Shown here piece after piece: positions 4,321 to 32,426 of a stretch of 40,826 bases of DNA. Origin of the DNA: Acidimicrobiia bacterium (lineage in GTDB: Bacteria > Actinomycetota > Acidimicrobiia > Spongiisociales > UBA4744); the NCBI GenBank assembly GCA_024763085.1, contig JANTGE010000003.1:1-40826 (forward strand), given 5' to 3'. Under the pieces are notes generated by a model, which had not been told where the DNA came from, did not search any database, and saw only the letters and a list, made by a program, of their open reading frames with translations. A program made the position numbers and the translations under genes. How positions within the stretch are numbered: the stretch's first letter is position 1; every line of letters starts with the position of its first letter.

Positions 4321-4721
4321 TGAGCCGAATCCTCGCGCTCGACTACGGAACCGTGCGGATCGGAGTCGCGATGAGCGACCCGTTGCGTCTGACGGCACAG
4401 CCACTCGACGTCCTCGCCGCCGACGACTGGCACGATGCGTTGGAGCGGCTCGTTGCCGAGTACCAGATCGAGGAGATCGTCGTCGGATTGCCGACGTCCC
4501 TGGACGGGTCCGAGACGGCGGCGGCCATGGCGGCTCGGAGCTTCGGTGAGGAGGTGGCGGCGCTGACCGGCCTTCCGGTCTCGTTCGTAGATGAGCGCTT
4601 TAGCACTCGCATCGCCCACGACGCGATGCTCGCCGCCGACGCGTCGAGGGCAACCCGTCGCGGAAACATCGACAAGGTGGCCGCCGCGGTGATTCTGCAA
4701 AGCTGGCTGGATCGCCGATGA
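4320..4721 (+). CDS. ruvX: RuvX/YqgF family nuclease
   Basis: ILALDYGTVRIGVAMSD, VVGLP, VDERFST, IDKVAAAVILQSWL; follows alaS. Confidence 0.96.
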   Translation: MSRILALDYGTVRIGVAMSDPLRLTAQPLDVLAADDWHDALERLVAEYQIEEIVVGLPTSLDGSETAAAMAARSFGEEVAALTGLPVSFVDERFSTRIAHDAMLAADASRATRRGNIDKVAAAVILQSWLDRR

Positions 4722-5779
4722 CGAGTAAGGTCCGCCCCATCGTGGTACTCGCCGCCGTGGCGCTGGTCGCGGTGGTGGCGGTCACGGGGGCCAGAAAGCT
4801 CGCCGCTTGGGTAGGCGGTCTCGGAGGTGTCACCGACGTGACCGCGCCGGCCGACATCGTCGCGGGGGAGAGCGTCGAGGTGGTCATTCCGGCGGGTGTC
4901 GCTGCGAGGCAGATCGGGTCGCTGCTGGCCGAGAAGGGCATCGTCGATTCGTCTCTGGCGTTCGAGGCCGAGGTCCGTCGGCAGGGCGTCGCCGATCGGC
5001 TGCAAGCGGGCACCTACCGGATGGTGACCGGCATGGGACCTGCGGCAGCTCTGGAGGTGTTGCTCAACGGCCCCGAAGACGCTTCTTACCGCATCACGCT
5101 GAGGGAAGGGCTTTGGGTCAGCGAACTGCTTGCTTCGCTGGCGGAGCAGACGCCCTATACGCTGAGCGAGTTCGAAACTGCCCTCGACCAGGTTACGTCT
5201 CCCTATCACAACGGGGAAGCCGCAGACCCGCAGACGTGGGAAGGGCTGCTCTACCCGGACACCTACGAGATCTCCGAAAGCGCCACGCCGGTCCAGATAC
5301 TGCAGAAACTCGCCGACACCATGACGGCGCGGGTCGACAGCCTCGACTGGAGCGCGCTTCAAGCCCGCGGCCTCTCGGTCTACGAGGGCATCATCGTCGC
5401 TTCGATGGTCGAGGCCGAGGCCAAGGTGGACGACGATCGGCCTCTCATCGCCTCGGTGATCGTCAACCGGCTCGAGATCGGCATGCCGCTGCAGATCGAC
5501 GCCACCGTGCTCTATGCGCTCGGCGAACGCGGCAAGGCGCTGACGCTCGACGATCTCGAGATCGACTCGCCCTACAACACCTATCGGATCGGCGGCCTGC
5601 CCCCGACGCCGATCGGAGCGCCGGCATTGCGAAGCCTCGAAGCGGCGGCGCATCCCGCAGACTCCGACTTCCTGTACTACGTCCTTACGTCCGCCGATGG
5701 ACGCCACTCGTTCGCCGAGACGTACGACGAGTTCCTCCGTCTCAAAGCTCAGGCCAAAGCCGACGGGGTCCTTCCCTAA
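4718..5779 (+). CDS. mltG: Endolytic transglycosylase MltG
   Basis: N-terminal TM, EGLLYPDTY, IVASMVEAEA, IASVIVNRL..GMPLQIDATV, SPYNTY..GLPPTPI. Confidence 0.96.
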   Translation: MTSKVRPIVVLAAVALVAVVAVTGARKLAAWVGGLGGVTDVTAPADIVAGESVEVVIPAGVAARQIGSLLAEKGIVDSSLAFEAEVRRQGVADRLQAGTYRMVTGMGPAAALEVLLNGPEDASYRITLREGLWVSELLASLAEQTPYTLSEFETALDQVTSPYHNGEAADPQTWEGLLYPDTYEISESATPVQILQKLADTMTARVDSLDWSALQARGLSVYEGIIVASMVEAEAKVDDDRPLIASVIVNRLEIGMPLQIDATVLYALGERGKALTLDDLEIDSPYNTYRIGGLPPTPIGAPALRSLEAAAHPADSDFLYYVLTSADGRHSFAETYDEFLRLKAQAKADGVLP

Positions 5780-5783
5780 AAGT

Positions 5784-5812
5784 CTCAAGCCCGCTCTCGT
5801 CCGCGCCGACAT
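5784..5812 (+). promoter_or_regulatory. Putative sigma-28/WhiG-family promoter CTCAAG-N15-GCCGACAT
   Basis: Intergenic, upstream of the first pil-cluster gene; same motif and spacing at 8489, 11465 and 12076. Confidence 0.7.
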
Positions 5813-5840
5813 CACGAGAGGAACAGGAAGGGCAAACATC

Positions 5841-6797
5841 ATGTCATTGACCGGTGCGTTGGAGGCATTCCCGATCGCCGAGGTGATCGGTCTGATCGGT
5901 AAGACTCGCAAGAGCGGGGTGCTCAAGATCGACGGGGATCACATCGAGGCGCGCGTCTACTTCTCGGAAGGACGGGTCTCGTACGGCACGACCCGAAGGG
6001 ACGAAGAGTTCCATGCCAAGCTCGTCGAGGCGGGTCTCGTCGATCCGAAGCAGTGGGTGCACGTCGAACGTCGAGAGCGATCCATCGCAGACATTCTCGC
6101 GTCGGGAGCATCAGAGGAGACCCTCACCGCGTTCCTCAAAGATCAGGTTTCCGATGTCCTGTTCCGGATTCTGCGCCAGGACGCCGGCACCTTCTCGTTC
6201 AGCGACGACGTGGCTCCACGGTTCGATACCGGCGTCGTGCTCGACGTCGGCGAGTGCGTGGATGAGGCGAACCACCGCATGGCCCGCTGGGCCGACATCG
6301 AACAGGTCATTCCCGGCGTCGGCTTCCATCTGAGGCCGGTGGCAGCCGCCGCGCCTGACGACGGCTCCCTGCAACTCGACGCCGACGAGTGGCGCGTACT
6401 CGCCGGGTTGCTCGGCCAGGCATCGGTCGAGCATGTGGCCCGAACGCTCGGATGGTCCGAGTTCAAAGCAGCCGAAACCATGGCGGCGATGGTTCGGCGA
6501 GGTCTGCTCGAAGTGGCCGATCACCGACCAAACGCCCGGCATGTGTACGGGGAAGAGGCCGAGGATGTCCCACCGATCGAAGTAGTCGGACCGAGGGTGC
6601 CGGCGTCGCAGGAAGAGGGCCAGGAGGCGTCCGAGGCGACCGAGGAAACCGAGTCCGAGCCGTCGGCCGGCTCCGATGACGACGAGCGGGAACTCCTGAA
6701 AGGAGCCCTCTCCGACATGGTGGCCGAGCCGGATGACCGCCTCTCCGGTCTCCGACGCCGCCGAGGCATCGGGTCGATCGGGAGGGACGGTTCCTAG
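5841..6797 (+). CDS. DUF4388 (PatA-N/PATAN-like) domain protein with predicted winged-helix segment and acidic tail
   Basis: MSLTGALEAFPIAEVIGLIGKTRKSGVLKI...VYFSEGRV...GTFSF is the DUF4388 pattern; EWRVLAGL...SVEHVARTLGWSEFKAAETMAAMVRRGLLEV resembles a wHTH. Purine-rich RBS before ATG 5841. Confidence 0.8.
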   Translation: MSLTGALEAFPIAEVIGLIGKTRKSGVLKIDGDHIEARVYFSEGRVSYGTTRRDEEFHAKLVEAGLVDPKQWVHVERRERSIADILASGASEETLTAFLKDQVSDVLFRILRQDAGTFSFSDDVAPRFDTGVVLDVGECVDEANHRMARWADIEQVIPGVGFHLRPVAAAAPDDGSLQLDADEWRVLAGLLGQASVEHVARTLGWSEFKAAETMAAMVRRGLLEVADHRPNARHVYGEEAEDVPPIEVVGPRVPASQEEGQEASEATEETESEPSAGSDDDERELLKGALSDMVAEPDDRLSGLRRRRGIGSIGRDGS

Positions 6798-8486
6798 ATG
6801 ACCAGCCGCGGCATGGTCAGAAGAGACGCCGGCCACCTGGGCGCGTTGCTCCTCGAAGAGGGGATCGTCACCCAGGAGGCACTCGACCGCGCCCTCGAAA
6901 TCCACGCCGAGTCCGGTTTGCCGCTCGGCCGGGTTCTCGTCGACGAACGCCTCGTCGACGAACGTGACCTGGTTCGGGTGCTGGCGAGATCGATCGGGCT
7001 CGATTTCATCGACCTTCGGGAAGAAACGGTCGATCCGGCAGCGGCCTCGCTGATCCCGGAAGCGCTCGCCAGGCGATACGCCGCGCTGCCGGTTGCTTTC
7101 GACGGCGACAGTCTCGTGGTTGCGATGGCAGACCCGGCGAACGTGCTGGCCATCGACGACATTCGTGCCATCACCGGCCGTGAAGTGCTGCCGAAGGTCG
7201 CGACACGTTCCGACGTCGAAGACGCTATCGGAAAGATCGCTGCGCTCGATGGGTCGGTTACCGACCTTGCCGAACTTGCGGCGGAGGACAGCGTAGAGAC
7301 CCAGGACCTCGGTGCGGTCGAAGCGGCCGCCGACGAGGCGCCGGTCGTGAAGCTCGTCAACATGCTGATCACGAGGGCCGCCGCCGACAGAGCTTCCGAC
7401 ATTCACATCGAGCCCACCGAACGGGATCTCCGAGTTCGGTTCCGCATCGATGGGGTCCTTCACGAGATCATGCGAACGCCCCGTTCGATCTCCAACGCCG
7501 TGGTGTCCCGGCTGAAGATCATGGCAGACATCGACATCGCCGAACGCCGGCGCCCTCAGGACGGGCGCATCAACCTCAAGGTCGGAGGCAGGCAGCTGGA
7601 CCTTCGAGTGTCGTCGCTGCCCACGATCTACGGCGAGAAGGTCGTGATGCGCCTCCTCGATACTTCGACGGCGCTCCTCGAACTCGAAGATCTCGGCTTC
7701 GAGCCCGACACCCTCGAGCGCTACGCCGCTTCCTACACGAAACCGTACGGCACCATCCTGGTGGTCGGCCCGACCGGATCCGGAAAGTCGACGACGCTGT
7801 ACGCAACCCTCAACGTTCTCAACCGGCCCGAAGTCAACATCGTTACCATCGAAGATCCGGTCGAGTACCGGCTTTCGGGGATCAGCCAGGTGCAGGTGAA
7901 CAAGAAGGCCGGACTCACCTTCGCTTCCGCGCTGCGGTCGTTCCTTCGTCAGGACCCGGACATCATGCTCGTCGGCGAGATCCGGGACACCGAGACCGCA
8001 CGGATAGCGATCGAGTCGGCTCTGACCGGACACCTGGTGCTGTCAACGCTGCACACCAACGATGCGCCGTCTTCGATCAGCCGCCTCATCGAAATGGGCG
8101 TCGAGCCGTTTCTCGTCGGCTCGGCGCTCGACGGGGTACTTGCCCAGCGACTGGCCCGCCGCCTCTGTGACAACTGCAAAGAGCAATATGAGCCCACAGA
8201 ACAGGCACTCGAAGAGATCGGATGGGAAGGAGATCCCCCCGAGACGCTCTACCGGCCTGTCGGGTGCAAGGTCTGCTCCAACACGGGGTATCGGGGCCGA
8301 GTGGCCATCCACGAACTCATGTTGGTCGACGAAGACATCGAGCGCCTTGCAGTGGAGCGGGCCTCGACGGAAGTGATCACCCGTGCCGCCATCGCAGGCG
8401 GGATGCGACCTTTGAAACATGATGGGCTGCGAAAAGTGGCCGCAGGGATCACCAGCCTGGAAGAAATCCTCCGGGTCGTCGTCTGA
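6798..8486 (+). CDS. pilB: Type IV pilus extension ATPase PilB (GspE/PulE family) with N-terminal MshEN-type domain
   Basis: ASDIHIEP, DIAERRRPQDGR, GPTGSGKSTTLY, TIEDPVEY, LRQDPDIMLVGEIRD, TGHLVLSTLHTN, zinc motif CDNC..CKVC. Start could be ATG 6813. Confidence 0.95.
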   Translation: MTSRGMVRRDAGHLGALLLEEGIVTQEALDRALEIHAESGLPLGRVLVDERLVDERDLVRVLARSIGLDFIDLREETVDPAAASLIPEALARRYAALPVAFDGDSLVVAMADPANVLAIDDIRAITGREVLPKVATRSDVEDAIGKIAALDGSVTDLAELAAEDSVETQDLGAVEAAADEAPVVKLVNMLITRAAADRASDIHIEPTERDLRVRFRIDGVLHEIMRTPRSISNAVVSRLKIMADIDIAERRRPQDGRINLKVGGRQLDLRVSSLPTIYGEKVVMRLLDTSTALLELEDLGFEPDTLERYAASYTKPYGTILVVGPTGSGKSTTLYATLNVLNRPEVNIVTIEDPVEYRLSGISQVQVNKKAGLTFASALRSFLRQDPDIMLVGEIRDTETARIAIESALTGHLVLSTLHTNDAPSSISRLIEMGVEPFLVGSALDGVLAQRLARRLCDNCKEQYEPTEQALEEIGWEGDPPETLYRPVGCKVCSNTGYRGRVAIHELMLVDEDIERLAVERASTEVITRAAIAGGMRPLKHDGLRKVAAGITSLEEILRVVV

Positions 8487-8488
8487 GC

Positions 8489-8517
8489 GTCAAGGTGGAG
8501 GTTTCGATGACCGATAG
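8489..8517 (+). promoter_or_regulatory. Putative sigma-28/WhiG-family promoter GTCAAG-N15-ACCGATAG
   Basis: Between pilB stop and pilT ATG 8525; same spacing as the other three copies. Confidence 0.65.
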
Positions 8518-8524
8518 AAAGGGT

Positions 8525-10057
8525 ATGACGGTGCGTTCATCTCGTAAGCTCGGCGAACTGCTGGTCGACCAGCGTGTGCTGCCGCGGGACGTGCTGGAAG
8601 ACCTGCTCCGGGTCGAAGCCGACTCGGGCCGTCCTCTGGCCAAACTGCTGGTCGAGCGCGGCCACGTGCGGGAAGAAGACGTCCTTCGGGCAGTGGCGTC
8701 ACGCGTGGACGTTCCCTTCGTCGACCTTGACGATGCGCTGCTGGAACCGCAGGCAACCGGCATGCTTCCTTTCGAACGTGCCGCCGAACTGCTGGCCATG
8801 CCGGTCCGGAGAGAGTCAGACGGGACCGTGCTCGTCGCCGTCGCCGATCCGTTCAACGGGAACCTGCGACTGGCGCTCGAAGAGGACATGAAGAGTCCGG
8901 TGACGCTGGCGATGGCGACTCGAGAGGGCATCCATCGTGCCATCGAGTTCGTGTACGGAAAGGCAGCCGTCACCGCAGAGTCGAAGCCGGAACCTTCGAT
9001 CAACGACATGCTGACCTACGTGATGGAGAATGGTGGGTCAGATCTTCACCTGACCAGCGGAGTCCCACCACAGATACGGGTCAACGGTCGCCTCATGCCC
9101 ATCCCCGGATACGACCCGCTGATGCCCGCCGAACTCCGCCGGATGATCTACGGGATTCTCACCGAACGGCAGAGAGAAGCTTTGGAGGAGCACCTCGAGT
9201 TGGATGGGTCGCATCCGCTGCCCGGTCGCGGCCGATTCCGCATGAACGTGTTCTTCCAGCGGGACTCCATCGGCGCGGTGTTCCGGGCGATACCGACCGA
9301 GATCATGTCGATCGAAGAACTGGGCATGCCACCGGTCCTTGCCGAGTTCGCCGAACTCCATCGTGGCCTCGTGCTCGTCACAGGTCCGACGGGGGCCGGC
9401 AAGTCGACGACGCTCGCGGCGATCATCGACCGTATCAACAATCGGCGAGCGGTGCACATTTTGACCATCGAAGACCCGATTGAGTTTCTTCACCGGCACA
9501 AGAAGGCAATCGTCAATCAACGGGAGGTCGGGAACGACACTCTCGGCTTCCAAACGGCGCTCCGGCATGCACTTCGACAAGACCCGGACGTGCTGCTGGT
9601 GGGGGAGATGCGGGATCTCGAAACGATCTCCACGGCGCTGACGGCTGCCGAGACCGGCCACCTGGTGTTCGCAACGCTGCACACCCAGGACGCGCCCCAG
9701 ACGGTGGATCGGATCATCGACGTGTTTCCCGCGCATCAGCAACAGCAGGTCAGGGTGCAGTTGGCGGCGACGTTGCAGGCCATCGTCACTCAGCAGCTCG
9801 TACCCAGCCGAGACGGTCGCGGCAGGGTCGCCGCTGCCGAGGTGTTGGTTGCCACCCCGGCCATCAGGAACCTGATCCGGGAAGGGAAGACCCAGCAGAT
9901 CGCCACGGCGATGCAGTCCGGCGGGAAGTACGGGATGCAGACCATGGACCAGTCGCTCGCTGACCTGGTCAAGCGACAGAAGATCACGTTCGAAGAGGCC
10001 GTCGATCGCTGCGTGAACCTCGAAGACCTGCGGCGGCTGACCGGACGAGTTGCCTGA
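8525..10057 (+). CDS. pilT: Type IV pilus retraction ATPase PilT with N-terminal MshEN/N1-like extension
   Basis: GSDLHL, GPTGAGKSTTLAA, TIEDPIEF, LRQDPDVLLVGEMRD, AAETGHLVFATLHT, PilT signature AIRNLIRE, GMQTMDQSL; no tetra-Cys motif. Start 8525 or 8507. Confidence 0.93.
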   Translation: MTVRSSRKLGELLVDQRVLPRDVLEDLLRVEADSGRPLAKLLVERGHVREEDVLRAVASRVDVPFVDLDDALLEPQATGMLPFERAAELLAMPVRRESDGTVLVAVADPFNGNLRLALEEDMKSPVTLAMATREGIHRAIEFVYGKAAVTAESKPEPSINDMLTYVMENGGSDLHLTSGVPPQIRVNGRLMPIPGYDPLMPAELRRMIYGILTERQREALEEHLELDGSHPLPGRGRFRMNVFFQRDSIGAVFRAIPTEIMSIEELGMPPVLAEFAELHRGLVLVTGPTGAGKSTTLAAIIDRINNRRAVHILTIEDPIEFLHRHKKAIVNQREVGNDTLGFQTALRHALRQDPDVLLVGEMRDLETISTALTAAETGHLVFATLHTQDAPQTVDRIIDVFPAHQQQQVRVQLAATLQAIVTQQLVPSRDGRGRVAAAEVLVATPAIRNLIREGKTQQIATAMQSGGKYGMQTMDQSLADLVKRQKITFEEAVDRCVNLEDLRRLTGRVA

Positions 10058-10070
10058 CGGGAGGCCCAGC

Positions 10071-11288
10071 ATGGTCACATACGCATATCAGGTCAAAGAC
10101 AAAGAGGGCCTCATCCATAGCGGTGAGCTGAACGCAGACTCGACGGCTGCGGCAGTCCGCACCTTGCGTGATCGGGGCCTGTCTCCGATCTCGATCGAGG
10201 AGCAGAAGGCCTCCGCGCTGCAGAAAGAGATCAAGATCCCCGGTCTCTCCGGCCGGATCAAGACGAAAGAAGTGGCGGTCTTTTCTCGCCAGTTCGCCAC
10301 GATGATCAACGCTGGCCTCTCGCTGCTGCGATCCCTTGCGATCCTGTCCGAGCAGACGCCCAACCGGGCGTTCGCCGAGATCATCTCGGAGATCAAGGCC
10401 GACGTCGAAAAGGGCAAGAGCCTCTCCGAGGCGATGGACGGTCATCCGAAGGCCTTCAATCGACTGTACGTGGCGATGGTGCGCGCCGGTGAGATCGGCG
10501 GCGTGCTCGACGAGACCTTGCTTAGGTTGGCGGACACCCTGGAGCGACAGGTGGAGCTGCGCGGCAAGGTGAAGTCTGCGATGAGCTACCCGATTGCGGT
10601 GCTCGGGCTTGTTGTCCTGATCATGGCGGCCATGCTGATCTTCATCGTCCCCATGTTCGAAGACATGTACGCAGACCTGGGAGGGACGCTGCCGGTTCCA
10701 ACCCAGATACTGCTGTCTGTTTCACAGTTCGCCGTCGCGAAATGGTGGATCGTGCTGCTCGGCTTCGGGGTCTCCTTCTTCGCGTTCCGCAGGTGGGTGG
10801 CGACCGAACAAGGCCGTTTCCTCTTCGATTCGTTCAAACTGAAGGTGCCGATCTTCGGCGGTTTGACGCAGAAGACCGCGATCGCCCGCTTCTCAGAGAC
10901 GCTTGCGTCCCTGACGAGAACTGCCGTCCCGATCCTCCAGGCGATGGATATCGTCGCCGAGACCGCCGGCAATGAGGTCGTCGCTCGAGCCGTCAGGGAG
11001 GTCCGCTCGTCGGTCAAAGAGGGCGAGTCGTTGGCACAGCCACTGTCGAAACATCCCATCTTCCCGCCCATGGTCGTGCAGATGCTGGCCGTTGGCGAAG
11101 AGACTGGGGCACTCGACACGATGCTGGAGAAGATCGGCGACTTCTACAACGCCGAGGTCAACGCGACGGTGGACAGCCTGACCTCGCTCCTCGAACCACT
11201 CTTGATGGTCGTGCTGGGCGGGTCCGTTGGCGGCATGATCGTCGCCCTCTACATGCCGATGTTCAACCTCATCAACCTGGTGCAGTAG
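10071..11288 (+). CDS. pilC: Type IV pilus platform protein PilC (GspF family)
   Basis: FSRQFATMINAGL, MVRAGEIGGVLD, KVKSAMSYP, VGEETGALDTML, LLEP..ALYMPMF; RBS GGGAGG before ATG 10071. Confidence 0.96.
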   Translation: MVTYAYQVKDKEGLIHSGELNADSTAAAVRTLRDRGLSPISIEEQKASALQKEIKIPGLSGRIKTKEVAVFSRQFATMINAGLSLLRSLAILSEQTPNRAFAEIISEIKADVEKGKSLSEAMDGHPKAFNRLYVAMVRAGEIGGVLDETLLRLADTLERQVELRGKVKSAMSYPIAVLGLVVLIMAAMLIFIVPMFEDMYADLGGTLPVPTQILLSVSQFAVAKWWIVLLGFGVSFFAFRRWVATEQGRFLFDSFKLKVPIFGGLTQKTAIARFSETLASLTRTAVPILQAMDIVAETAGNEVVARAVREVRSSVKEGESLAQPLSKHPIFPPMVVQMLAVGEETGALDTMLEKIGDFYNAEVNATVDSLTSLLEPLLMVVLGGSVGGMIVALYMPMFNLINLVQ

Positions 11289-11396
11289 GCAGGCGACCTG
11301 CGACCCCAGAGTGCGGCTCTGAGAAAGTACCTGGTACTTGGTACCAGGTACTTTGGCATTGAAAGCCATCCACTTCGGGTTGGTCATGTCGCCTGC
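11289..11396. repeat. 108-nt nested imperfect inverted repeat with a perfect 14-bp core palindrome (11324-11354)
   Basis: Outer arms GCAGGCGAC (11289-97) and GTCGCCTGC (11388-96); core AAAGTACCTGGTAC-TTG-GTACCAGGTACTTT; intermediate imperfect arms. Confidence 0.85.
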
Positions 11397-11464
11397 GGTT
11401 TGGTCGACAGGGAACTAGTCCGCCGAGCAGGCCGACGATTGGTTCGCGTATGCGACTGAAAGTG

Positions 11465-11493
11465 CTCAAGGACATACGCTCGGTGGTCGATAG
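11465..11493 (+). promoter_or_regulatory. Putative sigma-28/WhiG-family promoter CTCAAG-N15-GTCGATAG
   Basis: Upstream of the major pilin. Followed by a small hairpin GGACCG-AGATC-CGGTCC (11504-11520) and SD GAAGGAG. Confidence 0.7.
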
Positions 11494-11536
11494 CGCATCT
11501 GAGGGACCGAGATCCGGTCCGGAAGGAGAAACCATC

Positions 11537-12010
11537 ATGATGCGCAAGATCCGCGAAGGACTTCGCAACGAAGAAGGCTTCACCCTCGTCGAGTTGATGG
11601 TGGTCGTGCTGATCATTGCCATTCTCATGGCGATTGCCATCCCGACGTTCCTGGGTGCTCGCGAGAAGGCGCAGGACCGCGCCGCGCAGAGCGACCTGCG
11701 GAACGGATTGACTGCAGCGAAGGTGTTCTATGTGGATGGGGAGACCTACCTCGACACTGACGCTGCAACGACGGCGGCTGCCTACGAAGCCCTCGAGCCG
11801 AGCATCGACTTCGATACGGTGGCAAATACGAGCACCAGCAAAGTCGGCGTGCTCGCCACAGCCAGTACCGTTCTGTTGACCAAGGAGAGCGCATCAGGGA
11901 CGTTCTTCTGCATCGCCGATGATACGAGCGGTGGCGGCACGACCTACGGGTCCGGTGCTGCGCTGGCCGATGTAGACACGGTCCTCGAGTGCAACGGCAC
12001 CAGCTGGTAG
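11537..12010 (+). CDS. pilA: Type IVa pilin, probable major pilin
   Basis: Class III signal peptide ...NEEG|FTLVELMVVVLIIAILMAIAIP with E5 and P22; C-terminal Cys pair; strong SD, own promoter and terminator. Confidence 0.92.
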   Translation: MMRKIREGLRNEEGFTLVELMVVVLIIAILMAIAIPTFLGAREKAQDRAAQSDLRNGLTAAKVFYVDGETYLDTDAATTAAAYEALEPSIDFDTVANTSTSKVGVLATASTVLLTKESASGTFFCIADDTSGGGTTYGSGAALADVDTVLECNGTSW

Positions 12011-12028
12011 TCCGAGAACCGAACGCCG

Positions 12029-12055
12029 AGAGAGGGTGGCTCAGCCACCCTCTCT
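12029..12055 (+). terminator. Intrinsic terminator-like hairpin after pilA
   Basis: Perfect 12-bp stem AGAGAGGGTGGC-TCA-GCCACCCTCTCT, 18 nt after the pilA stop; weak U tract. Confidence 0.75.
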
Positions 12056-12075
12056 TCGCGTTGCGGGGTGTTCCA

Positions 12076-12104
12076 CTCAAGGTGAGCCCTCGCCGCACCG
12101 ATGA
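12076..12104 (+). promoter_or_regulatory. Putative sigma-28/WhiG-family promoter CTCAAG-N15-ACCGATGA
   Basis: Directly after the pilA terminator and before the second pilin. Confidence 0.68.
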
Positions 12105-12114
12105 CATGAGCGAT

Positions 12115-12561
12115 ATGAAATCGGAGAGAGGCTTCACGCTTGTCGAGCTGATGGTGGTGGTGCTGATCATCGCCATGCTCATGGCGATCGGCATCCCGAC
12201 GTTCCTAGGTGCGCGAGAGCGGGCGCAAGACCGGGCAGCTGAGAGCAGGCTGATAGCCGCTCTCAAGACCGAGGAGGTCGTCGCCGTCGACGATGCCCAG
12301 TACACTGCCGTGGTGGCGATCTTGGCTGCTGCGGAACCGGCGCTCGACTGGTCGGGCGTTGCCGACGACTCGATTCACATCGTGGTCGGCGCGACGGTCA
12401 ATGCCAACGACACGGTGCTGCTCTACACGCAATCGAGCACCGGCTCGTGGCTCGGCGTGAAACGAGTCGCACAGGGTCCTACCACCGGCGTCTACACCTG
12501 CATCGGAGCGGCCCGCGCGGATGTCGATGACCTTGCCGACTGCACGGGGACGGAGTGGTAG
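12115..12561 (+). CDS. Second type IVa pilin (pilA paralog)
   Basis: MKSERG|FTLVELMVVVLIIAMLMAIGIPTFLGARERAQDRAA; Cys pair; ends CTGTEW. Start 12115 or 12106. Confidence 0.9.
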   Translation: MKSERGFTLVELMVVVLIIAMLMAIGIPTFLGARERAQDRAAESRLIAALKTEEVVAVDDAQYTAVVAILAAAEPALDWSGVADDSIHIVVGATVNANDTVLLYTQSSTGSWLGVKRVAQGPTTGVYTCIGAARADVDDLADCTGTEW

Positions 12562-13319
12562 TCGCTCTCGCCGCCATCCTTGGCCTCATCGTCGGTTCGT
12601 TCATCAACGTTGTCGCCTATCGGGTTCCAGAAGGAAAGTCCGTCGTTTCTCCAGGATCGGCGTGTCCGAACTGTGGAACTCCGATCAGACCCTATGACAA
12701 CATCCCGGTTGTCTCATGGCTCGTGCTGCGTGGGCGGTGCCGGGACTGTGGTAGTCGCATCTCCGTACGGTATCCGGTAGTGGAGGCGGGGACCGCAGTA
12801 CTCTTTGCCGCCGCCTTATTGGTCGTGGGCCTGCATTGGATCCTGGCCGCGTACCTGTGGTTTGCCGGTGTGACCATGACCCTCATCCTCACCGACCTCG
12901 ACCATCATCGACTACCCAACAAGATCGTCTATGTCGGAACGGCGGTTGGGGTCGTCCTCCTGACTGCCGGTGCTGTTGCCGACGGTCTGACGTCGAACTT
13001 GGGGAGGGCGCTGCTGGGCGGCGTGATCTACTTCGGCCTGCTCCTCCTCATCGCCATCGCTGCCCGCGGGGGCTTCGGCATGGGGGACGTCAAGCTCTCC
13101 TTCATGCTCGGCGTGTTCCTCGCCTTCCGCTCCTGGGCGGTGCTCGCATCCGGCGTCTTTCTGGCGTTCTTCGTCGGTGGCATCGTCTCGGTTGGCTTGC
13201 TGCTGCTGAGGCGGCGTGGTCGTAAGGACGCGATCGCCTTCGGCCCGGCCCTCATCGTTGGGGCCTGGCTTGCCCTGGGCATCGGAGAGCCGCTCGTACG
13301 GTGGTACCTCGGCGTCTGA
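12555..13319 (+). CDS. pilD: Prepilin peptidase/N-methyltransferase PilD (A24A)
   Basis: GSFINVVAYRVP, CPNC..DNIPVVSWLVLRGRCRDC..ISVRYPVVE, catalytic Asp motifs TDLDHHRLP and GMGDVKL, AFGPAL. Confidence 0.95.
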   Translation: MVVALAAILGLIVGSFINVVAYRVPEGKSVVSPGSACPNCGTPIRPYDNIPVVSWLVLRGRCRDCGSRISVRYPVVEAGTAVLFAAALLVVGLHWILAAYLWFAGVTMTLILTDLDHHRLPNKIVYVGTAVGVVLLTAGAVADGLTSNLGRALLGGVIYFGLLLLIAIAARGGFGMGDVKLSFMLGVFLAFRSWAVLASGVFLAFFVGGIVSVGLLLLRRRGRKDAIAFGPALIVGAWLALGIGEPLVRWYLGV

Positions 13320-13412
13320 TTGCTTGCAGCTTCTACCGTCCATTGGTAGGGTTCAAACAACATCGATGTAATTCGATGGTTGCCGGAGCGCTACCGGCTG
13401 GGCGGAGTAAAC

Positions 13413-14477
13413 ATGACGACGAATGTCGGGTTGGACATCGGCACCAGTGCTGTAAGAGCAGCCATGGTACAGATGCAAAGGGGAGCACCGGTACTCAAAC
13501 GGTACGGCCAAGTCGCGCTGACCGAAGGTGCCGTGGTCGGCGGTGAAATCGTCGACCCCGATCTGGTGCGAGATGCCCTGATCGCGCTCTGGAAGAGCGC
13601 GAAACTCCCGAAAAGACGGGTCGTCGTCGGCATCGCCAACCAGCGGATCATCGTTCGCCGCCTCGACGTTCCCTACATGTCCGAAGAGGAACTGCGGGAG
13701 TCGCTCGCCTTCCGGGCGGCGGAGTACGTTCCGATGGCGATCGACGACGCCGTCCTCGACTTCGTGCCCCTCGAAGAGTTCGCCACTCCAGAAGGCGAAG
13801 CCATGCTGTCGGTCCTTGTCATTGCCGCCCAGAAAGACATGATCGACGAAGTGCTTGGAGTGGTGACGGGGGCCGGCATCAAACCTATGGCGCTCGACCT
13901 TCAAGCGTTTGCGATGGTCCGGGCCGCGTTCGGCACCGAATTCGATGTGCCCCCGGGTTCTCAGGCAATGGTCAACATCGGTGCTGGGGTGACGCAGGTT
14001 GCGATCCTCAAGAACGGAACCGTTCGCTTTCTGCGCATCATGCCGATGGGAGGGAGCTCATTCACGAGAGCGCTGGCAAGCGCCGCGTCCATTTCATCGG
14101 ATGAAGCCGAACGCTTGAAGCGCCGCATCGGTGTTCTTCCAGAGGGCCGCGCAGATGCGGAAGGGGACCCGGGGAGAGCCGCCCTCACGAGGGAAGCCGA
14201 CGCCCTCATCGAGGAAGTTCGGGGGTCCCTCGACTTCTACCTCTCCGAAGCCCAGGATGAACGCATTGAGCGAGTCCTGATCTCCGGCAACGGAGCCAGA
14301 CTGCCCCATCTGGCCAACCGGCTGGCTTCGCAACTCGAGGTACCCATCGAACCGCTCCGGGTGTTGGCAGAGGGAAGGGTGCAAACGGGCAAGGTCGGCA
14401 TGTCCGAAGCAGAACTGGCACAGATCGAACCGGTCTTGCCTGTGCCGCTCGGCCTTGCGATGTGGGGTGAAGCCTGA
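13413..14477 (+). CDS. pilM: Type IV pilus assembly protein PilM (actin-like)
   Basis: VGLDIGTSAVRA, MVNIGAGVTQV, MGGSSFTRAL, EEVRGSLDFY, ISGNGARL; SD GGAG before ATG 13413. Confidence 0.93.
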   Translation: MTTNVGLDIGTSAVRAAMVQMQRGAPVLKRYGQVALTEGAVVGGEIVDPDLVRDALIALWKSAKLPKRRVVVGIANQRIIVRRLDVPYMSEEELRESLAFRAAEYVPMAIDDAVLDFVPLEEFATPEGEAMLSVLVIAAQKDMIDEVLGVVTGAGIKPMALDLQAFAMVRAAFGTEFDVPPGSQAMVNIGAGVTQVAILKNGTVRFLRIMPMGGSSFTRALASAASISSDEAERLKRRIGVLPEGRADAEGDPGRAALTREADALIEEVRGSLDFYLSEAQDERIERVLISGNGARLPHLANRLASQLEVPIEPLRVLAEGRVQTGKVGMSEAELAQIEPVLPVPLGLAMWGEA

Positions 14478-15097
14478 TGCGTCCCGTCAACCTGCTGCCG
14501 GGAGAGCTGGCCAAGAAAGCCGCAGGCCGCCGCCGACTGTTTGGCCTCATGGCCCTCGGAGCAGCCTATGTGTTGGTGCTGGTCATGGTGGCCGTGTGGT
14601 GGAACGGGAAGCTCGCAGACGCCGAGGCGGAGCTGGCGCGGCAGGAGCAACTCAACACTGCTACCTCAGGCAAGATCGCAGCGCTGAAAGATGCCGAGGA
14701 GCTCAGATCCACCTACGACACCGATGTGGCCCTGGTACAAGCTGCGCTGGCACGCGACGTCGCATGGGGGCGACTCTTCAACGACCTTGCCCGGGTGATT
14801 CCCGAGCGGGTATGGCTCACAGGATTCTCCGGGACGGCCGTCGATGATCCGGATGCGCCGGAAGTGTACGGACAGCTGCAAATGAGTGGCACGGCGTTCG
14901 ACTACCCGGACGTCTCGACCTGGCTTCGGGTACTCGACGAGGATCCCTGGCCCTCGGTCGGTGGAGGATGGGTGACATCAGCCACGCTCTCGAGCATCGG
15001 TGAAGTCCCGATTGTGGAGTTCAACTCTGCTGCATCTCTGACCGCAGCAAGCCTTTCCGAACGCGCCGCCGAACGGATACCCGAGGTGCCGCAATGA
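14477..15097 (+). CDS. pilN: Type IV pilus alignment protein PilN
   Basis: N-terminal VNLLP motif, TM helix, coiled coil, W..LFNDLARVIPERVWLTGF. Confidence 0.9.
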   Translation: MRPVNLLPGELAKKAAGRRRLFGLMALGAAYVLVLVMVAVWWNGKLADAEAELARQEQLNTATSGKIAALKDAEELRSTYDTDVALVQAALARDVAWGRLFNDLARVIPERVWLTGFSGTAVDDPDAPEVYGQLQMSGTAFDYPDVSTWLRVLDEDPWPSVGGGWVTSATLSSIGEVPIVEFNSAASLTAASLSERAAERIPEVPQ

Positions 15098-15741
15098 AAC
15101 GTCAGACGCTGGTCGTCGCCTTGCTCGTCTTCGTAGCGGTCACGGCCCTGTGGTACATGTTCGGACTGCGGCCGATCAACGAGAAGATCGGCGAGACGGA
15201 TTCCCAGCTTCAGGCTGCGCAGGATGAGGCGGTGCTTCTGCAAACCAGATTGGCGAGACTGCAGAAGATCCGTGACAACGAACTCAGCTACATCTCGGCC
15301 ATAGGTGCCCTCGAAGCGCAGATTCCGCCGACGCCGAGTATGCCGGGACTCATCGAAGACCTGAACACTCTTGCCGATGAGACCGGCATCGACTGGCTCG
15401 GTGCGACCTGGGGCGCTCCGACGGAGATCGAAGGTGCAGGGTATTTCGAGATACCCATCACCTTGCAGGTCGAAGGACAATTCTTCGAACTGCTCGGCTA
15501 CCTGTACGGGATGTCGGACCTGGAGCGACTCGTCCGGATCGACGGCGTAACGATCTCCCCAACCGAGCAGGACGGCTTCATCGTGCTCAACGTGACGATC
15601 AACGCCAAAGCGTTTGCTACCAGCGGCATTGCGGTTCCGGAGATCCCTGCCGACGAAGAGACCACCACGACCACGACCGAACCGTCGACCACGACTACGA
15701 CGACGGAGGCAACCACGACGACCACGACAGGAGGTGCCTGA
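15094..15741 (+). CDS. pilO: Type IV pilus alignment protein PilO with Thr-rich tail
   Basis: N-terminal TM, coiled coil, IPPTPSMPGLIEDL, EIPITLQVEGQFFELLGYL..LERLVRID; follows pilN. Confidence 0.88.
   Translation: MKRQTLVVALLVFVAVTALWYMFGLRPINEKIGETDSQLQAAQDEAVLLQTRLARLQKIRDNELSYISAIGALEAQIPPTPSMPGLIEDLNTLADETGIDWLGATWGAPTEIEGAGYFEIPITLQVEGQFFELLGYLYGMSDLERLVRIDGVTISPTEQDGFIVLNVTINAKAFATSGIAVPEIPADEETTTTTTEPSTTTTTTEATTTTTTGGA
15661..15729 (+). repeat. Low-complexity ACN repeat encoding three runs of six Thr
   Basis: TTTTTT-EPS-TTTTTT-EA-TTTTTT at the PilO C-terminus, mixed synonymous codons. Confidence 0.9.
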
Positions 15742-16238
15742 TGACGGCGAGAACCGGCACCGCGGTCGCTGTCTCCATCCTGATGCTCGGCGTCGCGGTG
15801 GCGGTGAGCTGGCTCCTGCTCGGTCCGGCCATCATGGGAGCGTCCCCCGCGGCCCTCGACGGCCCTCTTGCCCAGCCGAGTCCTGCCGCACCCGCCCCGG
15901 CAGGGCTCGCAGGGCAGGAGATCGCCACCGGTGCGTTTCAGCTCGCCCAGCCCCGGGACCCGTTCAGGCCGCTGATCACCGAAGGATCCCCGGTTGGAGG
16001 TGGGGGAGGGACCGGCACCTTCGAGCCGTCCGGGATCCGGGTAGAGCTCATGGAGGTCCGCGACGTAGCCGGTGTCTTGCGAGCGACGGTGCAAGTCGAC
16101 TCCACCTCATACGATGTAGGAGTCGGTGACGTCTTCGCCGACGACTTCATGGTGGTGAGTCTCGACACCGACTCAGTGGTGATCCTCTACCGGGACAACG
16201 CCTTCACCCTGACGGTTGGCGATGTGATCTTCAAGTAG
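15741..16238 (+). CDS. PilP/GspC-like membrane-anchored protein
   Basis: After pilO; N-terminal TM, Pro/Ala linker, RDPFRPL motif, beta-rich C-terminal domain (RATVQVDSTSYDVGVGD); no Cys, so no lipobox. Confidence 0.65.
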   Translation: MTARTGTAVAVSILMLGVAVAVSWLLLGPAIMGASPAALDGPLAQPSPAAPAPAGLAGQEIATGAFQLAQPRDPFRPLITEGSPVGGGGGTGTFEPSGIRVELMEVRDVAGVLRATVQVDSTSYDVGVGDVFADDFMVVSLDTDSVVILYRDNAFTLTVGDVIFK

Positions 16239-16276
16239 GACTTGCCGAGCCGTCCGACCGTGTCGAAACTATCACC

Positions 16277-17410
16277 ATGTTGCGATTCCTCACCGCCGGA
16301 GAGTCTCATGGTGTCGGACTCGTCACCATCGTCGACGGTCTGCCGGCTGGTCTTCGGTTCACCGCCGATGGGCTCGCCGGAGAGTTGGCACGGCGCCGGC
16401 AGGGATACGGCCGCGGACCGAGGATGCGGATCGAACGGGATGAGATCGAGATCATCGCCGGGATCCGGTTCGGCCTCACCACCGGCGCGCCCGTTGCGGT
16501 GGTCATCCGCAACACGGAAGCGGAACGGTGGAAGGACGAGTTGGACCCCGCTCCAGGAGGCAGGCCGAAGCGCCTCCTGACGACTCCCCGTCCCGGACAT
16601 GCCGACCTGCCCGGCATGCAGAAATACGACACCGGGGACGCCCGCCCGATCCTGGAGCGGGCCTCGGCCCGAGAGACCGCCGCAAGGGCGGTTGCCGGCT
16701 ATGCCGCCGAGGAACTCCTGGCGGCGCTCGGGGTGTCCGTCGTTGGCTCGGTCGTCCAGATTGGCGGCGAGACCGCCTCCCGGGCCGCCACCGTCGCGGA
16801 GCGGGAACTCATCGAAGCGTCGCCGACCAGATCCGTCGATGGTGCCGAGGCCATGATGATGGCGATCGACCGTGCCAAAGCCGACAGGGACACGCTGGGA
16901 GGAATCTTCGCGGTGGTAGCCGAAGGCGTACCCGCCGGACTCGGCTCTCACACCCAGTGGGACCGGCGACTCGACGGTCTGCTTGGACGGGCACTTCTGT
17001 CGATTCCCGCGGTGAAAGGCGTCGAGATCGGCGACGCGTTCGCCACGGCAGCGGGCCCCGGATCGGCGGCCCACGACGAGATCGACACCGATCGACGGCG
17101 CCTCTCCAACCGTGCAGGTGGCGTCGAGGGAGGAATGAGCAACGGCGAACCGATCGTGGTCAAAGCGGCGATGAAGCCTCTCTCGACGCTGATGCGCCCG
17201 CTTCGCACCGTGGACGTCGCAACCGGCGGGGCCGATGTGGCCTTCCGGGAGCGATCCGATGTCTGTGCCGTCCCGGCCGCGTCGGTCGTCGGCGAACACA
17301 TGGTGGCATGGACCCTTGCCGTGGCTTTCGTCGAGATGTTCGGAGGCGACACGATCACGGACGTGCAGGAGCGGGTCGCCGCCTACCGCGCGAGACTGGA
17401 CGAACGTTGA
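16277..17410 (+). CDS. aroC: Chorismate synthase
   Basis: MLRFLTAGESHG, RRRQGYGRGPRM, PRPGHADL, LERASARETAAR, NRAGGVEGGMSNG, ERSDVCAVP. Confidence 0.98.
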   Translation: MLRFLTAGESHGVGLVTIVDGLPAGLRFTADGLAGELARRRQGYGRGPRMRIERDEIEIIAGIRFGLTTGAPVAVVIRNTEAERWKDELDPAPGGRPKRLLTTPRPGHADLPGMQKYDTGDARPILERASARETAARAVAGYAAEELLAALGVSVVGSVVQIGGETASRAATVAERELIEASPTRSVDGAEAMMMAIDRAKADRDTLGGIFAVVAEGVPAGLGSHTQWDRRLDGLLGRALLSIPAVKGVEIGDAFATAAGPGSAAHDEIDTDRRRLSNRAGGVEGGMSNGEPIVVKAAMKPLSTLMRPLRTVDVATGGADVAFRERSDVCAVPAASVVGEHMVAWTLAVAFVEMFGGDTITDVQERVAAYRARLDER

Positions 17411-31496: not shown

Positions 31497-32426
31497 ATGG
31501 CAGAACGGATTCTGGTCGTAGACGACGACCCGGACATCCTGCAGTTCATACGGGTCAACCTCGAACTGGAGGGATTCGGGGTCGAGTTGGCGACGACCGG
31601 CGCCGACGCGATCGAGTCGGTGTCGCAACAGCCGCCCGACCTGGTACTCCTGGACGTCATGATGCCCGGGATGGACGGCTTCGGGGTACTTCGCAGACTG
31701 CGAGCGCATCCCGCCGCGGCCAACACGTCGATCATCCTCCTCACCGCCAGGACGCTGCCCGAAGACCGTATCCGGGGTCTCGAACTCGGCGCCGACGACT
31801 ACATCACGAAACCTTTCGATGTCGACGAGCTGATCGCCCGGGTGAAGGCGGTACTCAGAAGGTCGCAGACGATGCGGGACGTGTCGCCCCTCACCGGGCT
31901 TCCGGGCAACTTTCGGATTTCGCAGGAGTTGGAGCGTCGCATCCGGCAAGGGAGTCCACTGGCCATCGTCCAGGCGGACCTCGACAACTTCAAGGCCTAC
32001 AACGACCACTACGGCTTCATGCGGGGAGACCAGGTCATCAAGTTCACCGCCCATGCGCTCCTCGAAGCCGCCGCCGGATGCGGTGCCGCCGATGCGTTCG
32101 TCGGGCACATTGGAGGGGATGACTTCCTGGCCGTCGTCCACCCTGACGCCGTTGAGACCTTCTGCAAGCTGGGAATCACGACCTTCGACAACGGCATTCT
32201 GGACTTCTACGACACCGAAGACGCCCTCCGGGGCTACATCGAGGTGCCCGACCGGCGGGGAGAACAGCACGCGTTCCCGATCGTATCTATCTCGATGGGT
32301 GTCGTAACGAACCTGCATCGTCCGATCACGTCACAGTGGGAGGCCTCGGCCATCGCCGTGGAGATGAAGGAGTTCGCCAAGCAGGTGGCCGGCTCCTCCT
32401 ACCGGATCGACCGACGGACCGCCTGA
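31497..32426 (+). CDS. Response regulator with REC and GGDEF-family (GGDDF) domains; putative diguanylate cyclase
   Basis: REC: ILVVDDD, LLDVMMP, LTA, KPF. Cyclase: PLTGLPGN, DLDNFKAYNDHYG..RGD, GHIGGDDF. Confidence 0.9.
   Translation: MAERILVVDDDPDILQFIRVNLELEGFGVELATTGADAIESVSQQPPDLVLLDVMMPGMDGFGVLRRLRAHPAAANTSIILLTARTLPEDRIRGLELGADDYITKPFDVDELIARVKAVLRRSQTMRDVSPLTGLPGNFRISQELERRIRQGSPLAIVQADLDNFKAYNDHYGFMRGDQVIKFTAHALLEAAAGCGAADAFVGHIGGDDFLAVVHPDAVETFCKLGITTFDNGILDFYDTEDALRGYIEVPDRRGEQHAFPIVSISMGVVTNLHRPITSQWEASAIAVEMKEFAKQVAGSSYRIDRRTA

Follow-up and report, generated by a model that had tools for sequence, protein, structure and literature searches.

A probable monoderm type IVa pilus locus of an Acidimicrobiia bacterium, with an MshEN-like domain on PilT and a PilP-like protein

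Introduction

The question of how one platform serves PilB and PilT in alternation is still unanswered in pilus biology. PilT normally does without an N1 domain, by which ATPases of the PilB type are tethered. Here we analyse a cluster of eleven genes, probably encoding a type IVa pilus (T4aP) of the monoderm form, in which both motor ATPases carry an N-terminal domain of the MshEN type, a PATAN (DUF4388) protein heads the motor operon, and a PilP-like protein is encoded directly after pilO. The cluster lies in a stretch of 40,826 nucleotides from an Acidimicrobiia bacterium (the window), which is the entire contig C3 of a metagenome-assembled genome (MAG) of 211 contigs and 1.94 Mb, 89.58% complete.

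The presence of T4aP in Actinobacteria has been noted before (Denise 2019, PMC6668835). Within the same class-level group, pilABCEMOTY1 sets are listed for the Acidimicrobiia order UBA5794, together with Tad genes, in free-living members; this is a gene list only, with no analysis of locus architecture, fusions, promoters or PilP-like proteins (PMC12008989). As to control, the T4P cluster of Rubrobacter is organised in about three units, each behind a flagellar-type sigma-28/WhiG promoter inside the cluster, and is under RsiG and cyclic di-GMP (c-di-GMP), WhiG and RsiG both being encoded and c-di-GMP enzymes being linked to the regulon (PMC8325347). Sigma-28/WhiG promoters of T4P genes have been predicted in five further actinobacterial families (PMC12871210), and Acidimicrobiia is not named among these six families in the parts of the two sources covered (PMC8325347, PMC12871210). 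The zoospore pili of Actinoplanes missouriensis are co-expressed with flagella and transcribed by FliA/WhiG-like sigmas, and adhesion to hydrophobic surfaces depends on them; this organism, unlike the host of the window, is a filamentous sporangium former without RsiG (Kimura 2019, cited in PMC8325347).

The monoderm T4aP of Firmicutes (Streptococcus sanguinis, Clostridium perfringens) share with the window the same core of PilB, PilT, PilC, PilD, PilM/N/O and pilins and have no secretin, and in C. perfringens PilB2 binds c-di-GMP through an MshEN domain; in the portions covered they have no PilP, PATAN gene or sigma-28 control, and PilT is not described with an N1 or MshEN domain (PMC6916266, PMC11656802). 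The MshEN domain of Vibrio cholerae MshE is homologous to the N-domains of both motors of the window (PMC5013675; motif in PMC11731258), but in Vibrio it is found on the extension ATPase only, whereas in the window the retraction ATPase has it too, with a deviant motif. V. cholerae PilT is tabulated as a non-binder of c-di-GMP in a review (PMC10333796), and PilT does not occur in the text of Wang 2016.

Set against these systems, the locus is of a known kind, T4aP having been noted in Actinobacteria and sigma-28 control published for Rubrobacter. The suggestion of an uncharacterised system, made in an initial annotation from the DNA letters, is overstated, and what is unusual is confined to particular features. 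These are the fusion of an MshEN-type domain to PilT, the membrane-anchored PilP-like protein without a secretin, and the PATAN gene heading the motor operon.

Results and discussion

Gene content

The eleven open reading frames (ORFs), all on the + strand between 5841 and 16238 and flanked by mltG and aroC, are open throughout in the ORF scan. Gene identities were scored against Pfam and NCBIfam profiles and, together with the fold of the last product, they confirm those originally proposed for the eleven genes:

ORF 5697–6797, likely start ATG 5841, + strand: PATAN/DUF4388 protein (PF14332 63.5 bits, cut-off 25)
6798–8486, + strand: PilB extension ATPase (T2SSE 473 bits; MshEN 79.4 bits)
8495–10057, likely start ATG 8507 or 8525, + strand: PilT retraction ATPase (TIGR01420 489.3 bits, cut-off 319.1)
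10050–11288, + strand: PilC platform protein (T2SSF PF00482 in two stretches, 223.7 bits)
11537–12010, + strand: pilin 1, PilA1 (N_methyl 34.2 bits)
12106/12115–12561, + strand: pilin 2, PilA2 (N_methyl 32.7 bits)
12555–13319, + strand: PilD prepilin peptidase (A24_N_bact PF06750 122.4 bits; Peptidase_A24 PF01478 46.9 bits)
13380–14477, + strand: PilM (PF11104 157.3 bits; TIGR01175 193.2 bits, cut-off 133)
14477–15097, + strand: PilN (PF05137 38.3 bits, cut-off 22.8)
15094–15741, + strand: PilO (PF04350 58.7 bits, cut-off 22)
15741–16238, + strand: PilP-like protein of 165 aa (no family match; PilP/GspC-HR fold in the AlphaFold model)

Of the components expected of a type IVa pilus, PilB, PilT, PilM/N/O, PilC, a prepilin peptidase and pilins with G↓F-x-x-x-E (the arrow marks the cleavage site) are here, and a retraction-competent monoderm T4aP, as the initial annotation had it, is the best reading. 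Could the genes instead form a machine similar to the type II secretion system (T2SS), a pseudopilus exporting proteins through the wall without building long pili? The ATPase scores 629.6 bits with the GspE model, against 653.5 bits for PilB, and PilC matches GspF with 383.7 bits, but GspE stays below its cut-off (630.25) and so does GspF. A PilT with the AIRNLIRE sequence sits inside the operon, PilM/N/O are found and not GspL/GspM (GspM rows reach 18–19 bits, with a cut-off of 60), no secretin is matched in the genome itself or in five relatives, and the pilins, of about 143 aa and with C-terminal cysteine pairs, have T4a pilins as their best PDB matches. We therefore consider a secretion system of this kind very improbable. 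On the NCBIfam scores a T2SS was rejected, and so was a ComG competence pseudopilus, with the ComGA, ComGB and ComGC equivalogs all below cut-offs; the two assignments that the initial annotation had named as refuting its proposal are not borne out.

Motor ATPases

The top NCBIfam row for PilB is TIGR02538, 22 bits under its equivalog cut-off of 675.65, with GspE next, and for PilC the top rows are PilC models with scores below their cut-offs. The tetracysteine motif of PilB (C457, C460, C490 and C493) is invariant in 31 homologues. The PilB N-terminus passes the c-di-GMP motif model NF053729 (55.7 bits, cut-off 38) and has two 24-residue MshEN motifs separated by a 5-residue spacer, with histidine as both the first and the last residue of motif I; the same model is matched at E≤1e-9 in 28 of the 31 homologues.

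PilT has in its catalytic part the Walker boxes, the His boxes and the sequence PAIRNLIREGK, in which we take AIRNLIRE to be the PilT marker. It is preceded by a domain resembling MshEN/GSPII at residues ~11–165 (PF05157 46.9 bits, cut-off 23.1), so the MshEN domains originally noticed on both motors are upheld by the profiles. In comparisons with the PDB this domain matches MshEN (5htl, E 1.6e-10) and the GSPII domains of PilF (6f8l, E 2.8e-27), and it shares 33% identity with the N-domain of PilB across 111 residues. The MshEN layout is kept, with the two 24-residue motifs, the 5-residue spacer, the K/R-L-G start and the leucine positions, and an alignment of 115 fused homologues shows high conservation of the domain. 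It makes three departures from the relaxed MshEN motif (Wang 2016): position 10 of motif I is R/H, that motif ends in E, and in motif II an A replaces the G of position 3.

What does this domain do on PilT then? The three departures are conserved across the 115 homologues, PilT scores 34.6 bits with NF053729, short of the cut-off of 38, and at E≤1e-9 that model finds only 9 of 33 fused PilTs but 28 of 31 PilBs. On these grounds c-di-GMP binding is likely for the PilB N-domain and uncertain for that of PilT, both as judged from the motifs. The same observations, along with the resemblance of the two N-domains and the binding of Synechocystis PATAN to the N-terminal domain of PilB, are what would be expected if the domain on PilT were an N1 docking module and not a c-di-GMP sensor. 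PilT would in that case compete with PilB for a site shared by both motors, with PilM, the N-terminus of PilC and PATAN as candidates, and exchange of the motors would be set by competition rather than by ligand. However, the retained MshEN layout speaks against this, there are fused PilTs that fit the motif model at E 1.9e-13, and the GSPII-B domain of PilF is a tight binder of c-di-GMP although it lacks the canonical arginines (PMC11731258). We give the docking alternative about an even chance; it concerns one sub-mechanism and leaves the assignment of the locus as a T4aP intact.

The fusion is widespread. Among the relatives, defined as the 80 best PilT loci in a species-genome collection, all from MAGs, 66 encode the N-domain and PilT as one fused protein. 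In 400 other genomes sampled evenly over the phylum, at least 21 have a fused PilT, a lower bound counted among the matches listed (150 of 592). These fall under six family codes, with at least 14 genomes in f24, two each in f22 and f58 and one each in f4, f5 and f8. PilT as such was found in 301 of 401 phylum genomes, including 13 flagged as unpublished, and none of the 21 with a fusion is among those 13. No description of an MshEN-PilT fusion was found in the main text of the literature examined. The genome also encodes a second, unlinked pilT_fam protein on contig C118 (437.6 bits, 47% identical to PilT), which looks PilU-like since it has ARVFDRIVEE where PilT has PAIRNLIRE.

A widespread PilT with a regained N1-type domain, next to a PATAN gene, offers a handle on motor exchange and on control of retraction by c-di-GMP. 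The significance would be greater if the PilT N-domain binds c-di-GMP or mediates motor exchange; if it does bind c-di-GMP and gates PilT, this would be the first known case of a retraction ATPase with a c-di-GMP gate in its own polypeptide.

PATAN protein

The PATAN gene is the first of the motor operon and its stop codon abuts the pilB start, while its own start at MSLTG is supported by an alignment of 26 homologues. The AlphaFold2 (AF2) model has a pLDDT above 90 for residues 1–225, followed by a disordered acidic tail. A helical insert sits in the PATAN alpha/beta core, and the core is followed by three helices and one strand resembling a winged helix, a reading that for residues 181–225 comes from the secondary structure and a weak TrmB match (E 0.0086); Foldseek found no PDB match to the model at E≤0.001. 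The DUF4388/PATAN domain is in common with cyanobacterial PatA-type regulators such as PixE and PixG, but unlike these the window protein has no receiver, has the winged-helix-like domain and acidic tail, and heads a pilB operon. In Synechocystis a PATAN protein binds the N-terminal domains of PilB1 and PilC, and proteins combining DUF4388 and GspE_N domains have been noted (bioRxiv 10.1101/2021.06.11.447907). By analogy, the window protein may be an adaptor directed toward both motor N-domains.

Most PATAN homologues have a C-terminal motif N/D-R-G-L-L-L-K-F-L-S-S-V-R after a variable disordered linker (alignment columns 701–724), and this conserved motif could be a membrane- or partner-binding peptide. 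The window protein and its two closest relatives have a different C-terminus, ending in RRRRGIGSIGRDGS.

PilP-like protein and the missing secretin

The last gene of the cluster has 214 homologues, none of which is assigned a Pfam family and one of which is named PilP by its source. The protein is built from a transmembrane helix (residues 3–31, without a lipobox cysteine), an invariant QPRDPFRPL sequence, a Gly-rich linker and a C-terminal beta-domain (residues 96–165), which measures 65–70 residues in aligned homologues and is modelled by AF2 with a pLDDT of 94–96. The top ten PDB rows in Foldseek are all GspC/LspC-HR, PilP or GspB, with E-values of 0.017–0.1, probability 1.0 and TM to target of 0.35–0.78. 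The top ten in VIA-align have Z of 9.3–6.4 and an rmsd of 2.1–3.2 Å over 62–66 residues, led by GspC 3oss (Z 9.3, rmsd 2.1 Å over 62 residues), GspB 4wfw (7.8), PilP 2ivw (7.8) and PilP 2lc4 (7.6). Next come 7muc, a chain from a Dot/Icm T4SS (Z 6.3), and 2qqp, a chain from a virus capsid (Z 5.9), and other non-GspC rows have Z of 4.1 or less. The model thus indicates a PilP/GspC-HR fold for the C-terminal domain.

PilP proteins have an RDPF-type motif, and such a motif precedes the domain here as well. Likeness to PilP, GspC-HR and GspB (2ivw, 2lc4, 2y4y, 3oss, 4wfw) also extends from the fold to the gene position directly after pilO. The protein differs from diderm PilP in its transmembrane anchor in place of a lipobox cysteine, in the family profile (PF04351 has no match at E≤1 among 36 members, 11 of which match T2SSB weakly) and in having no secretin partner. 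No match to the secretin family PF00263 was found in the genome, which is 89.58% complete, or in any of five relatives that are 90–100% complete, and in all five the PilP-like gene lies within 10 kb of pilT. The initial annotation's remark on the missing secretin was thus right for this genome, and a missing PilQ is expected of the monoderm form. In a review by Pelicic the absence of PilP from monoderms is considered logical (PMC6916266); in terms of fold, this lineage is an exception. The protein contradicts the published view of PilP as pointless without a secretin and, as it persists without one, it could reveal an ancestral role of the HR domain. If this reading is right, a secretin-less PilP-like protein would show that the HR domain has a secretin-independent role.

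Pilins

Both pilins have the cleavage motif G↓FTLVELM. In PilA1 the leader MMRKIREGLRNEEG is cut before FTLVELM, leaving a mature protein of 143 aa with two C-terminal cysteines, and AAGGAG is found 8 nt upstream of its ATG. Its N-terminal helix matches solved T4a pilins (7tgg, E 1e-14; 6xxd, E 4.5e-10). PilA2, 47% identical to PilA1, has the leader MSDMKSERG or MKSERG, depending on the start. PilA1 is probably the major subunit, since it is monocistronic, between a promoter motif of its own and a strong hairpin.

Candidates for minor pilins, which the initial annotation had proposed to look for elsewhere, are three co-oriented ORFs of 627, 194 and 507 aa on contig C32 (7854–11835), although none of the three has a Pfam match. 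They sit between relA and an MBL-fold gene followed by hisS, away from the pil cluster and in core synteny. Two have prepilin-like N-termini (DDG↓FTLVE and DEG↓ISVVE) and the third, without Glu5, is PilX_N-like.

Promoter motifs and transcription units

Three motifs of the sigma-28 type and two hairpins divide the cluster, the motifs having been found by pattern scan:

5784–5813, + strand: sigma-28/WhiG-like motif CTCAAG-N15-GCCGACAT, ~30 nt 5′ of the PATAN start
11324–11354, + strand: perfect 14-bp inverted repeat AAAGTACCTGGTAC..GTACCAGGTACTTT, after pilC and before the pilA1 promoter
11465–11494, + strand: sigma-28-like motif CTCAAG-N15-GTCGATAG, upstream of pilA1
12019–12066, + strand: terminator-like hairpin after pilA1 (-38.4 kcal/mol, z -5.55, 0/200 shuffles as good)
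12076–12105, + strand: sigma-28-like motif CTCAAG-N15-ACCGATGA, upstream of pilA2

By the published criteria for sigma-28 promoters (-35 T(A/C)AA or CTCA, a spacer of 16–17 nt, and -10 GCCGA with CGA intact; PMC12871210), the site at 5784 fits exactly, and those of pilA1 and pilA2 have one mismatch each to GCCGA with CGA kept. The position of the pilA2 motif suggests a near-leaderless transcript translated from ATG 12115. The inverted repeat between pilC and pilA1 folds with -31.9 kcal/mol (z -4.5), and none of 200 shuffles folded as well; it may act as a terminator lacking a U-tract, or as an operator to which a dimeric regulator binds. The remaining gene junctions overlap or have gaps of 60 nt at most. 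The motifs, the hairpins after pilC and pilA1 and these tight junctions point to three units, PATAN-pilB-pilT-pilC, pilA1 alone, and pilA2-pilD-pilMNO-pilP-like, and from the sequence we infer both that transcription starts at the three motifs and which type of sigma factor acts there.

The sigma-28-like promoter motifs of the initial annotation are supported by enrichment in the genome and among relatives. The pattern CTCAAG-N14-15-(NCCGAT or GNCGAT) has 19 sites in the genome, compared with 2–6 in each of ten shuffles, and by a crude test 16 of the 19 lie outside long ORFs. Among the relatives, 37 of 77 pilin starts have a relaxed motif within 160 nt upstream, while 6.8% of random windows contain it; for a strict motif the figures are 25 of 77 and a background of 0.7%. 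Upstream of DUF4388 homologues the figures are 16/23 (relaxed) and 8/23 (strict), and at other genes the motif is rare or absent (alaS 0/39, ruvX 1/46, pilD 0/17, aroC 0/12).

By Pfam, the genes after four of the 17 non-pilin sites encode a kinase resembling CheA, a histidine kinase with PAS, a single REC protein and a camelysin-like protein. The last of these is a secreted camelysin/TasA-like protein (Peptidase_M73 34.5 bits) on contig C6 (~1820–2488), and the CTCAAG-N-GTCGAT motif that precedes it ranks among the best. Judged by eye, other sites precede genes for an M23 peptidase with wall-binding repeats and for L,D-transpeptidase-like and CAP-domain proteins. The motif regulon may, in view of these genes, include cell-surface remodelling.

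Sigma factors, RsiG and competence genes

Both whiG and rsiG, which had been proposed as genes to look for elsewhere in the genome, are encoded, along with a second sigma-28. WhiG (NF004935 349.9 bits, cut-off 343) is on contig C4 at 3674–4474, in the order dprA-xerC-whiG-rpsB-tsf, and a twin-motif RsiG (PF22802 87.2 bits, in two stretches) is on contig C63 at 4865–5386 on the - strand. The second sigma of the FliA/WhiG family (174.5–174.9 bits, under the cut-off of 189.6) is on contig C22 at 5102–5932, in a flagellar cluster that also encodes FlgN, FlgK, FlhA, FlhB, FliR, FliP and a protein of the flagellin fold. This small genome appears to hold both the WhiG1-type and the WhiG2-type arrangements. 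A gene for an HDOD-domain protein follows the second sigma.

The window thus resembles Rubrobacter in the organisation of the cluster in about three units behind sigma-28-type promoters and in encoding WhiG and RsiG (PMC8325347). It differs in that RsiG is twin-motif and not single-motif, in the flagella and second sigma-28 of the genome, and in the -35 element, CTCAAG instead of TAAA. The link between WhiG, RsiG, c-di-GMP and pili would hereby be extended from Rubrobacter to flagellated Acidimicrobiia-like bacteria.

The genome also encodes the proteins that a competence system would need downstream of a pilus, all three of which the initial annotation had suggested to search for: ComEA (PF12836 75.3 bits) and ComEC (PF03772 113 bits) are together on contig C100, and DprA (PF02481 226.5 bits) adjoins whiG. 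The pilus could then be mainly for DNA uptake, its retraction delivering DNA to ComEA/ComEC, and in diderms T4aP-driven DNA uptake requires PilT (PMC6916266). However, ComEA, ComEC and DprA are matched in most control genomes, including Corynebacterium, and are therefore non-discriminating. The ComG equivalogs are all sub-cut-off (ComGA 258 vs 300, ComGB 146.8 vs 240, ComGC 35.7 vs 75 bits), and the promoter motif is shared with CheA-like and CheY-like genes, which points to a motility regulon. We regard DNA uptake as an unlikely main role. On sequence, twitching, adhesion and DNA uptake are indistinguishable.

Conservation and genomic position

Upstream of the cluster, on the + strand, Pfam identifies alaS (1702–4320), ruvX (4320–4721) and mltG/YceG (4718–5779), and downstream there is aroC (16277–17410), followed by aroK, aroB, efp, nusB and pyr genes. 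The titles of the 80 related loci assign them to Acidimicrobiia, Acidimicrobiales, Actinomycetota or Actinomycetes, three of the labels being evidently wrong, and there is no cultured carrier among them. The order alaS-ruvX-mltG-pilB-pilT-pilC recurs in these relatives. Where the contig leaves enough room, pilT has pilC behind it in all cases (70/70 loci with 1.3 kb or more downstream) and pilB ahead of it in 61 of 65; of the 54 loci with 5 kb or more upstream, 48 show mltG there. Only 12 of 39 loci have aroC within 10 kb downstream, as the clusters of many relatives are longer. A DUF4388 gene was detected by tblastn in 23 of the 50 loci showing mltG and pilB, which is an underestimate given identities of merely 21–57%.

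At the mltG-aroC site of five PilT-less genomes of the phylum, two, both of the same class, have a lone Peptidase_A24 ORF without the N-terminal domain:

G032, 1460–2035: peptidase remnant, directly upstream of aroC
G225, 1367–2362: peptidase remnant, directly upstream of aroC

The remnant was not detected in the other three, G024, G039 and G009 (tblastn at 1e-3, and for G024 also Pfam at 1e-3). The order in G032 is alaS-ruvX-mltG-aroE-peptidase-aroC. An expected peptidase at this site in Streptomyces and Mycobacterium was not confirmed. The fixed position between mltG and aroC and the peptidase-only remnant in two pilus-less relatives suggest, on the basis of these two genomes, that the pil cluster is old in the class and was lost by reduction.

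Since loss does occur in the lineage, as the truncated prepilin peptidases of G032 and G225 indicate, the cluster of the window might itself be a decaying remnant without function. Yet the eleven frames are all open, the catalytic and structural motifs are intact, and both order and sequence are conserved over the 80 loci, which leaves this alternative next to no chance.

In the window aroE is not found between mltG and aroC (5779–16277), while G032 and G024 have it there.

Proposed mechanism

We consider it quite probable, from the genes and motifs described above, that the locus encodes a complete and functional-looking monoderm T4aP machine. PilD would cleave both pilins; the membrane platform would be built from PilC, PilM/N/O and the membrane-anchored PilP-like protein; polymerisation of the filament would fall to PilB and its retraction to PilT, with minor pilins supplied from the C32 candidates. 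Each of the three transcription units would be driven from a motif of the sigma-28 (WhiG/FliA) type. Given these motifs and the presence of WhiG, RsiG and the sigma-28 of the flagellar cluster, pilus expression probably belongs to a motility and c-di-GMP regulon and would be silenced through c-di-GMP-armed RsiG, as in Rubrobacter. The MshEN domain of PilB probably binds c-di-GMP, and the N-domain of PilT may be a weaker second c-di-GMP site or a docking module for PilB's partner. PATAN probably acts on the motor N-domains or on PilC, as in cyanobacteria. The output would most likely be surface attachment and twitching, with DNA capture as a possible second role. A more specific proposal is that c-di-GMP and/or PATAN picks the PilB or the PilT hexamer, and that the HR domain has a secretin-independent role in an inner-membrane alignment complex; this we put forward tentatively and with rather low confidence.

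Several points weigh against this picture. The genome is a 211-contig MAG and 89.58% complete. PilB and PilC score slightly short of the NCBIfam equivalog cut-offs, and the GspE model nearly equals the PilB model on the ATPase. On PilT the three departures from the MshEN motif are fixed, and both its NF053729 score and the fraction of fused PilTs matching that model are low, as described above. The minor-pilin candidates come from language-model leads only (N_methyl and PilX_N clusters). The pilin promoters of the window have one or two mismatches each to GCCGATAA, the classical pattern TAAA-N-CCGATA (with an N13–18 spacer) has no match in the window, and promoters of WhiG and of a flagellar sigma are indistinguishable by motif (PMC12871210). 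There is also an uneasy relation between the two proposed levels of control, in that RsiG would shut WhiG off at high c-di-GMP, yet a PilB of the MshEN type needs c-di-GMP. A sequence in which the machine is first made and then armed would reconcile the two, although this is speculation.

Other features

Farther along the window, the GGDDF protein of the initial annotation is found as described, as a REC-GGDEF-like protein:

31497–32426, + strand: REC-GGDEF-like protein (PF00072 111.1 bits; PF00990 48.1 bits)

It sits between rpe and ribD, 15 kb downstream of the pil cluster. The PF00990 match spans profile positions 5–88 of 161 only and the signature is GGDDF, both of which make cyclase activity doubtful. 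Elsewhere in the genome there are two loci of the Tad type, on contigs C150 and C90. One encodes a 650-aa fusion of a TadB-like protein with a von Willebrand A domain, and the other has RcpC/CpaB, a TadA-like ATPase of 548 aa and two T2SSF proteins.

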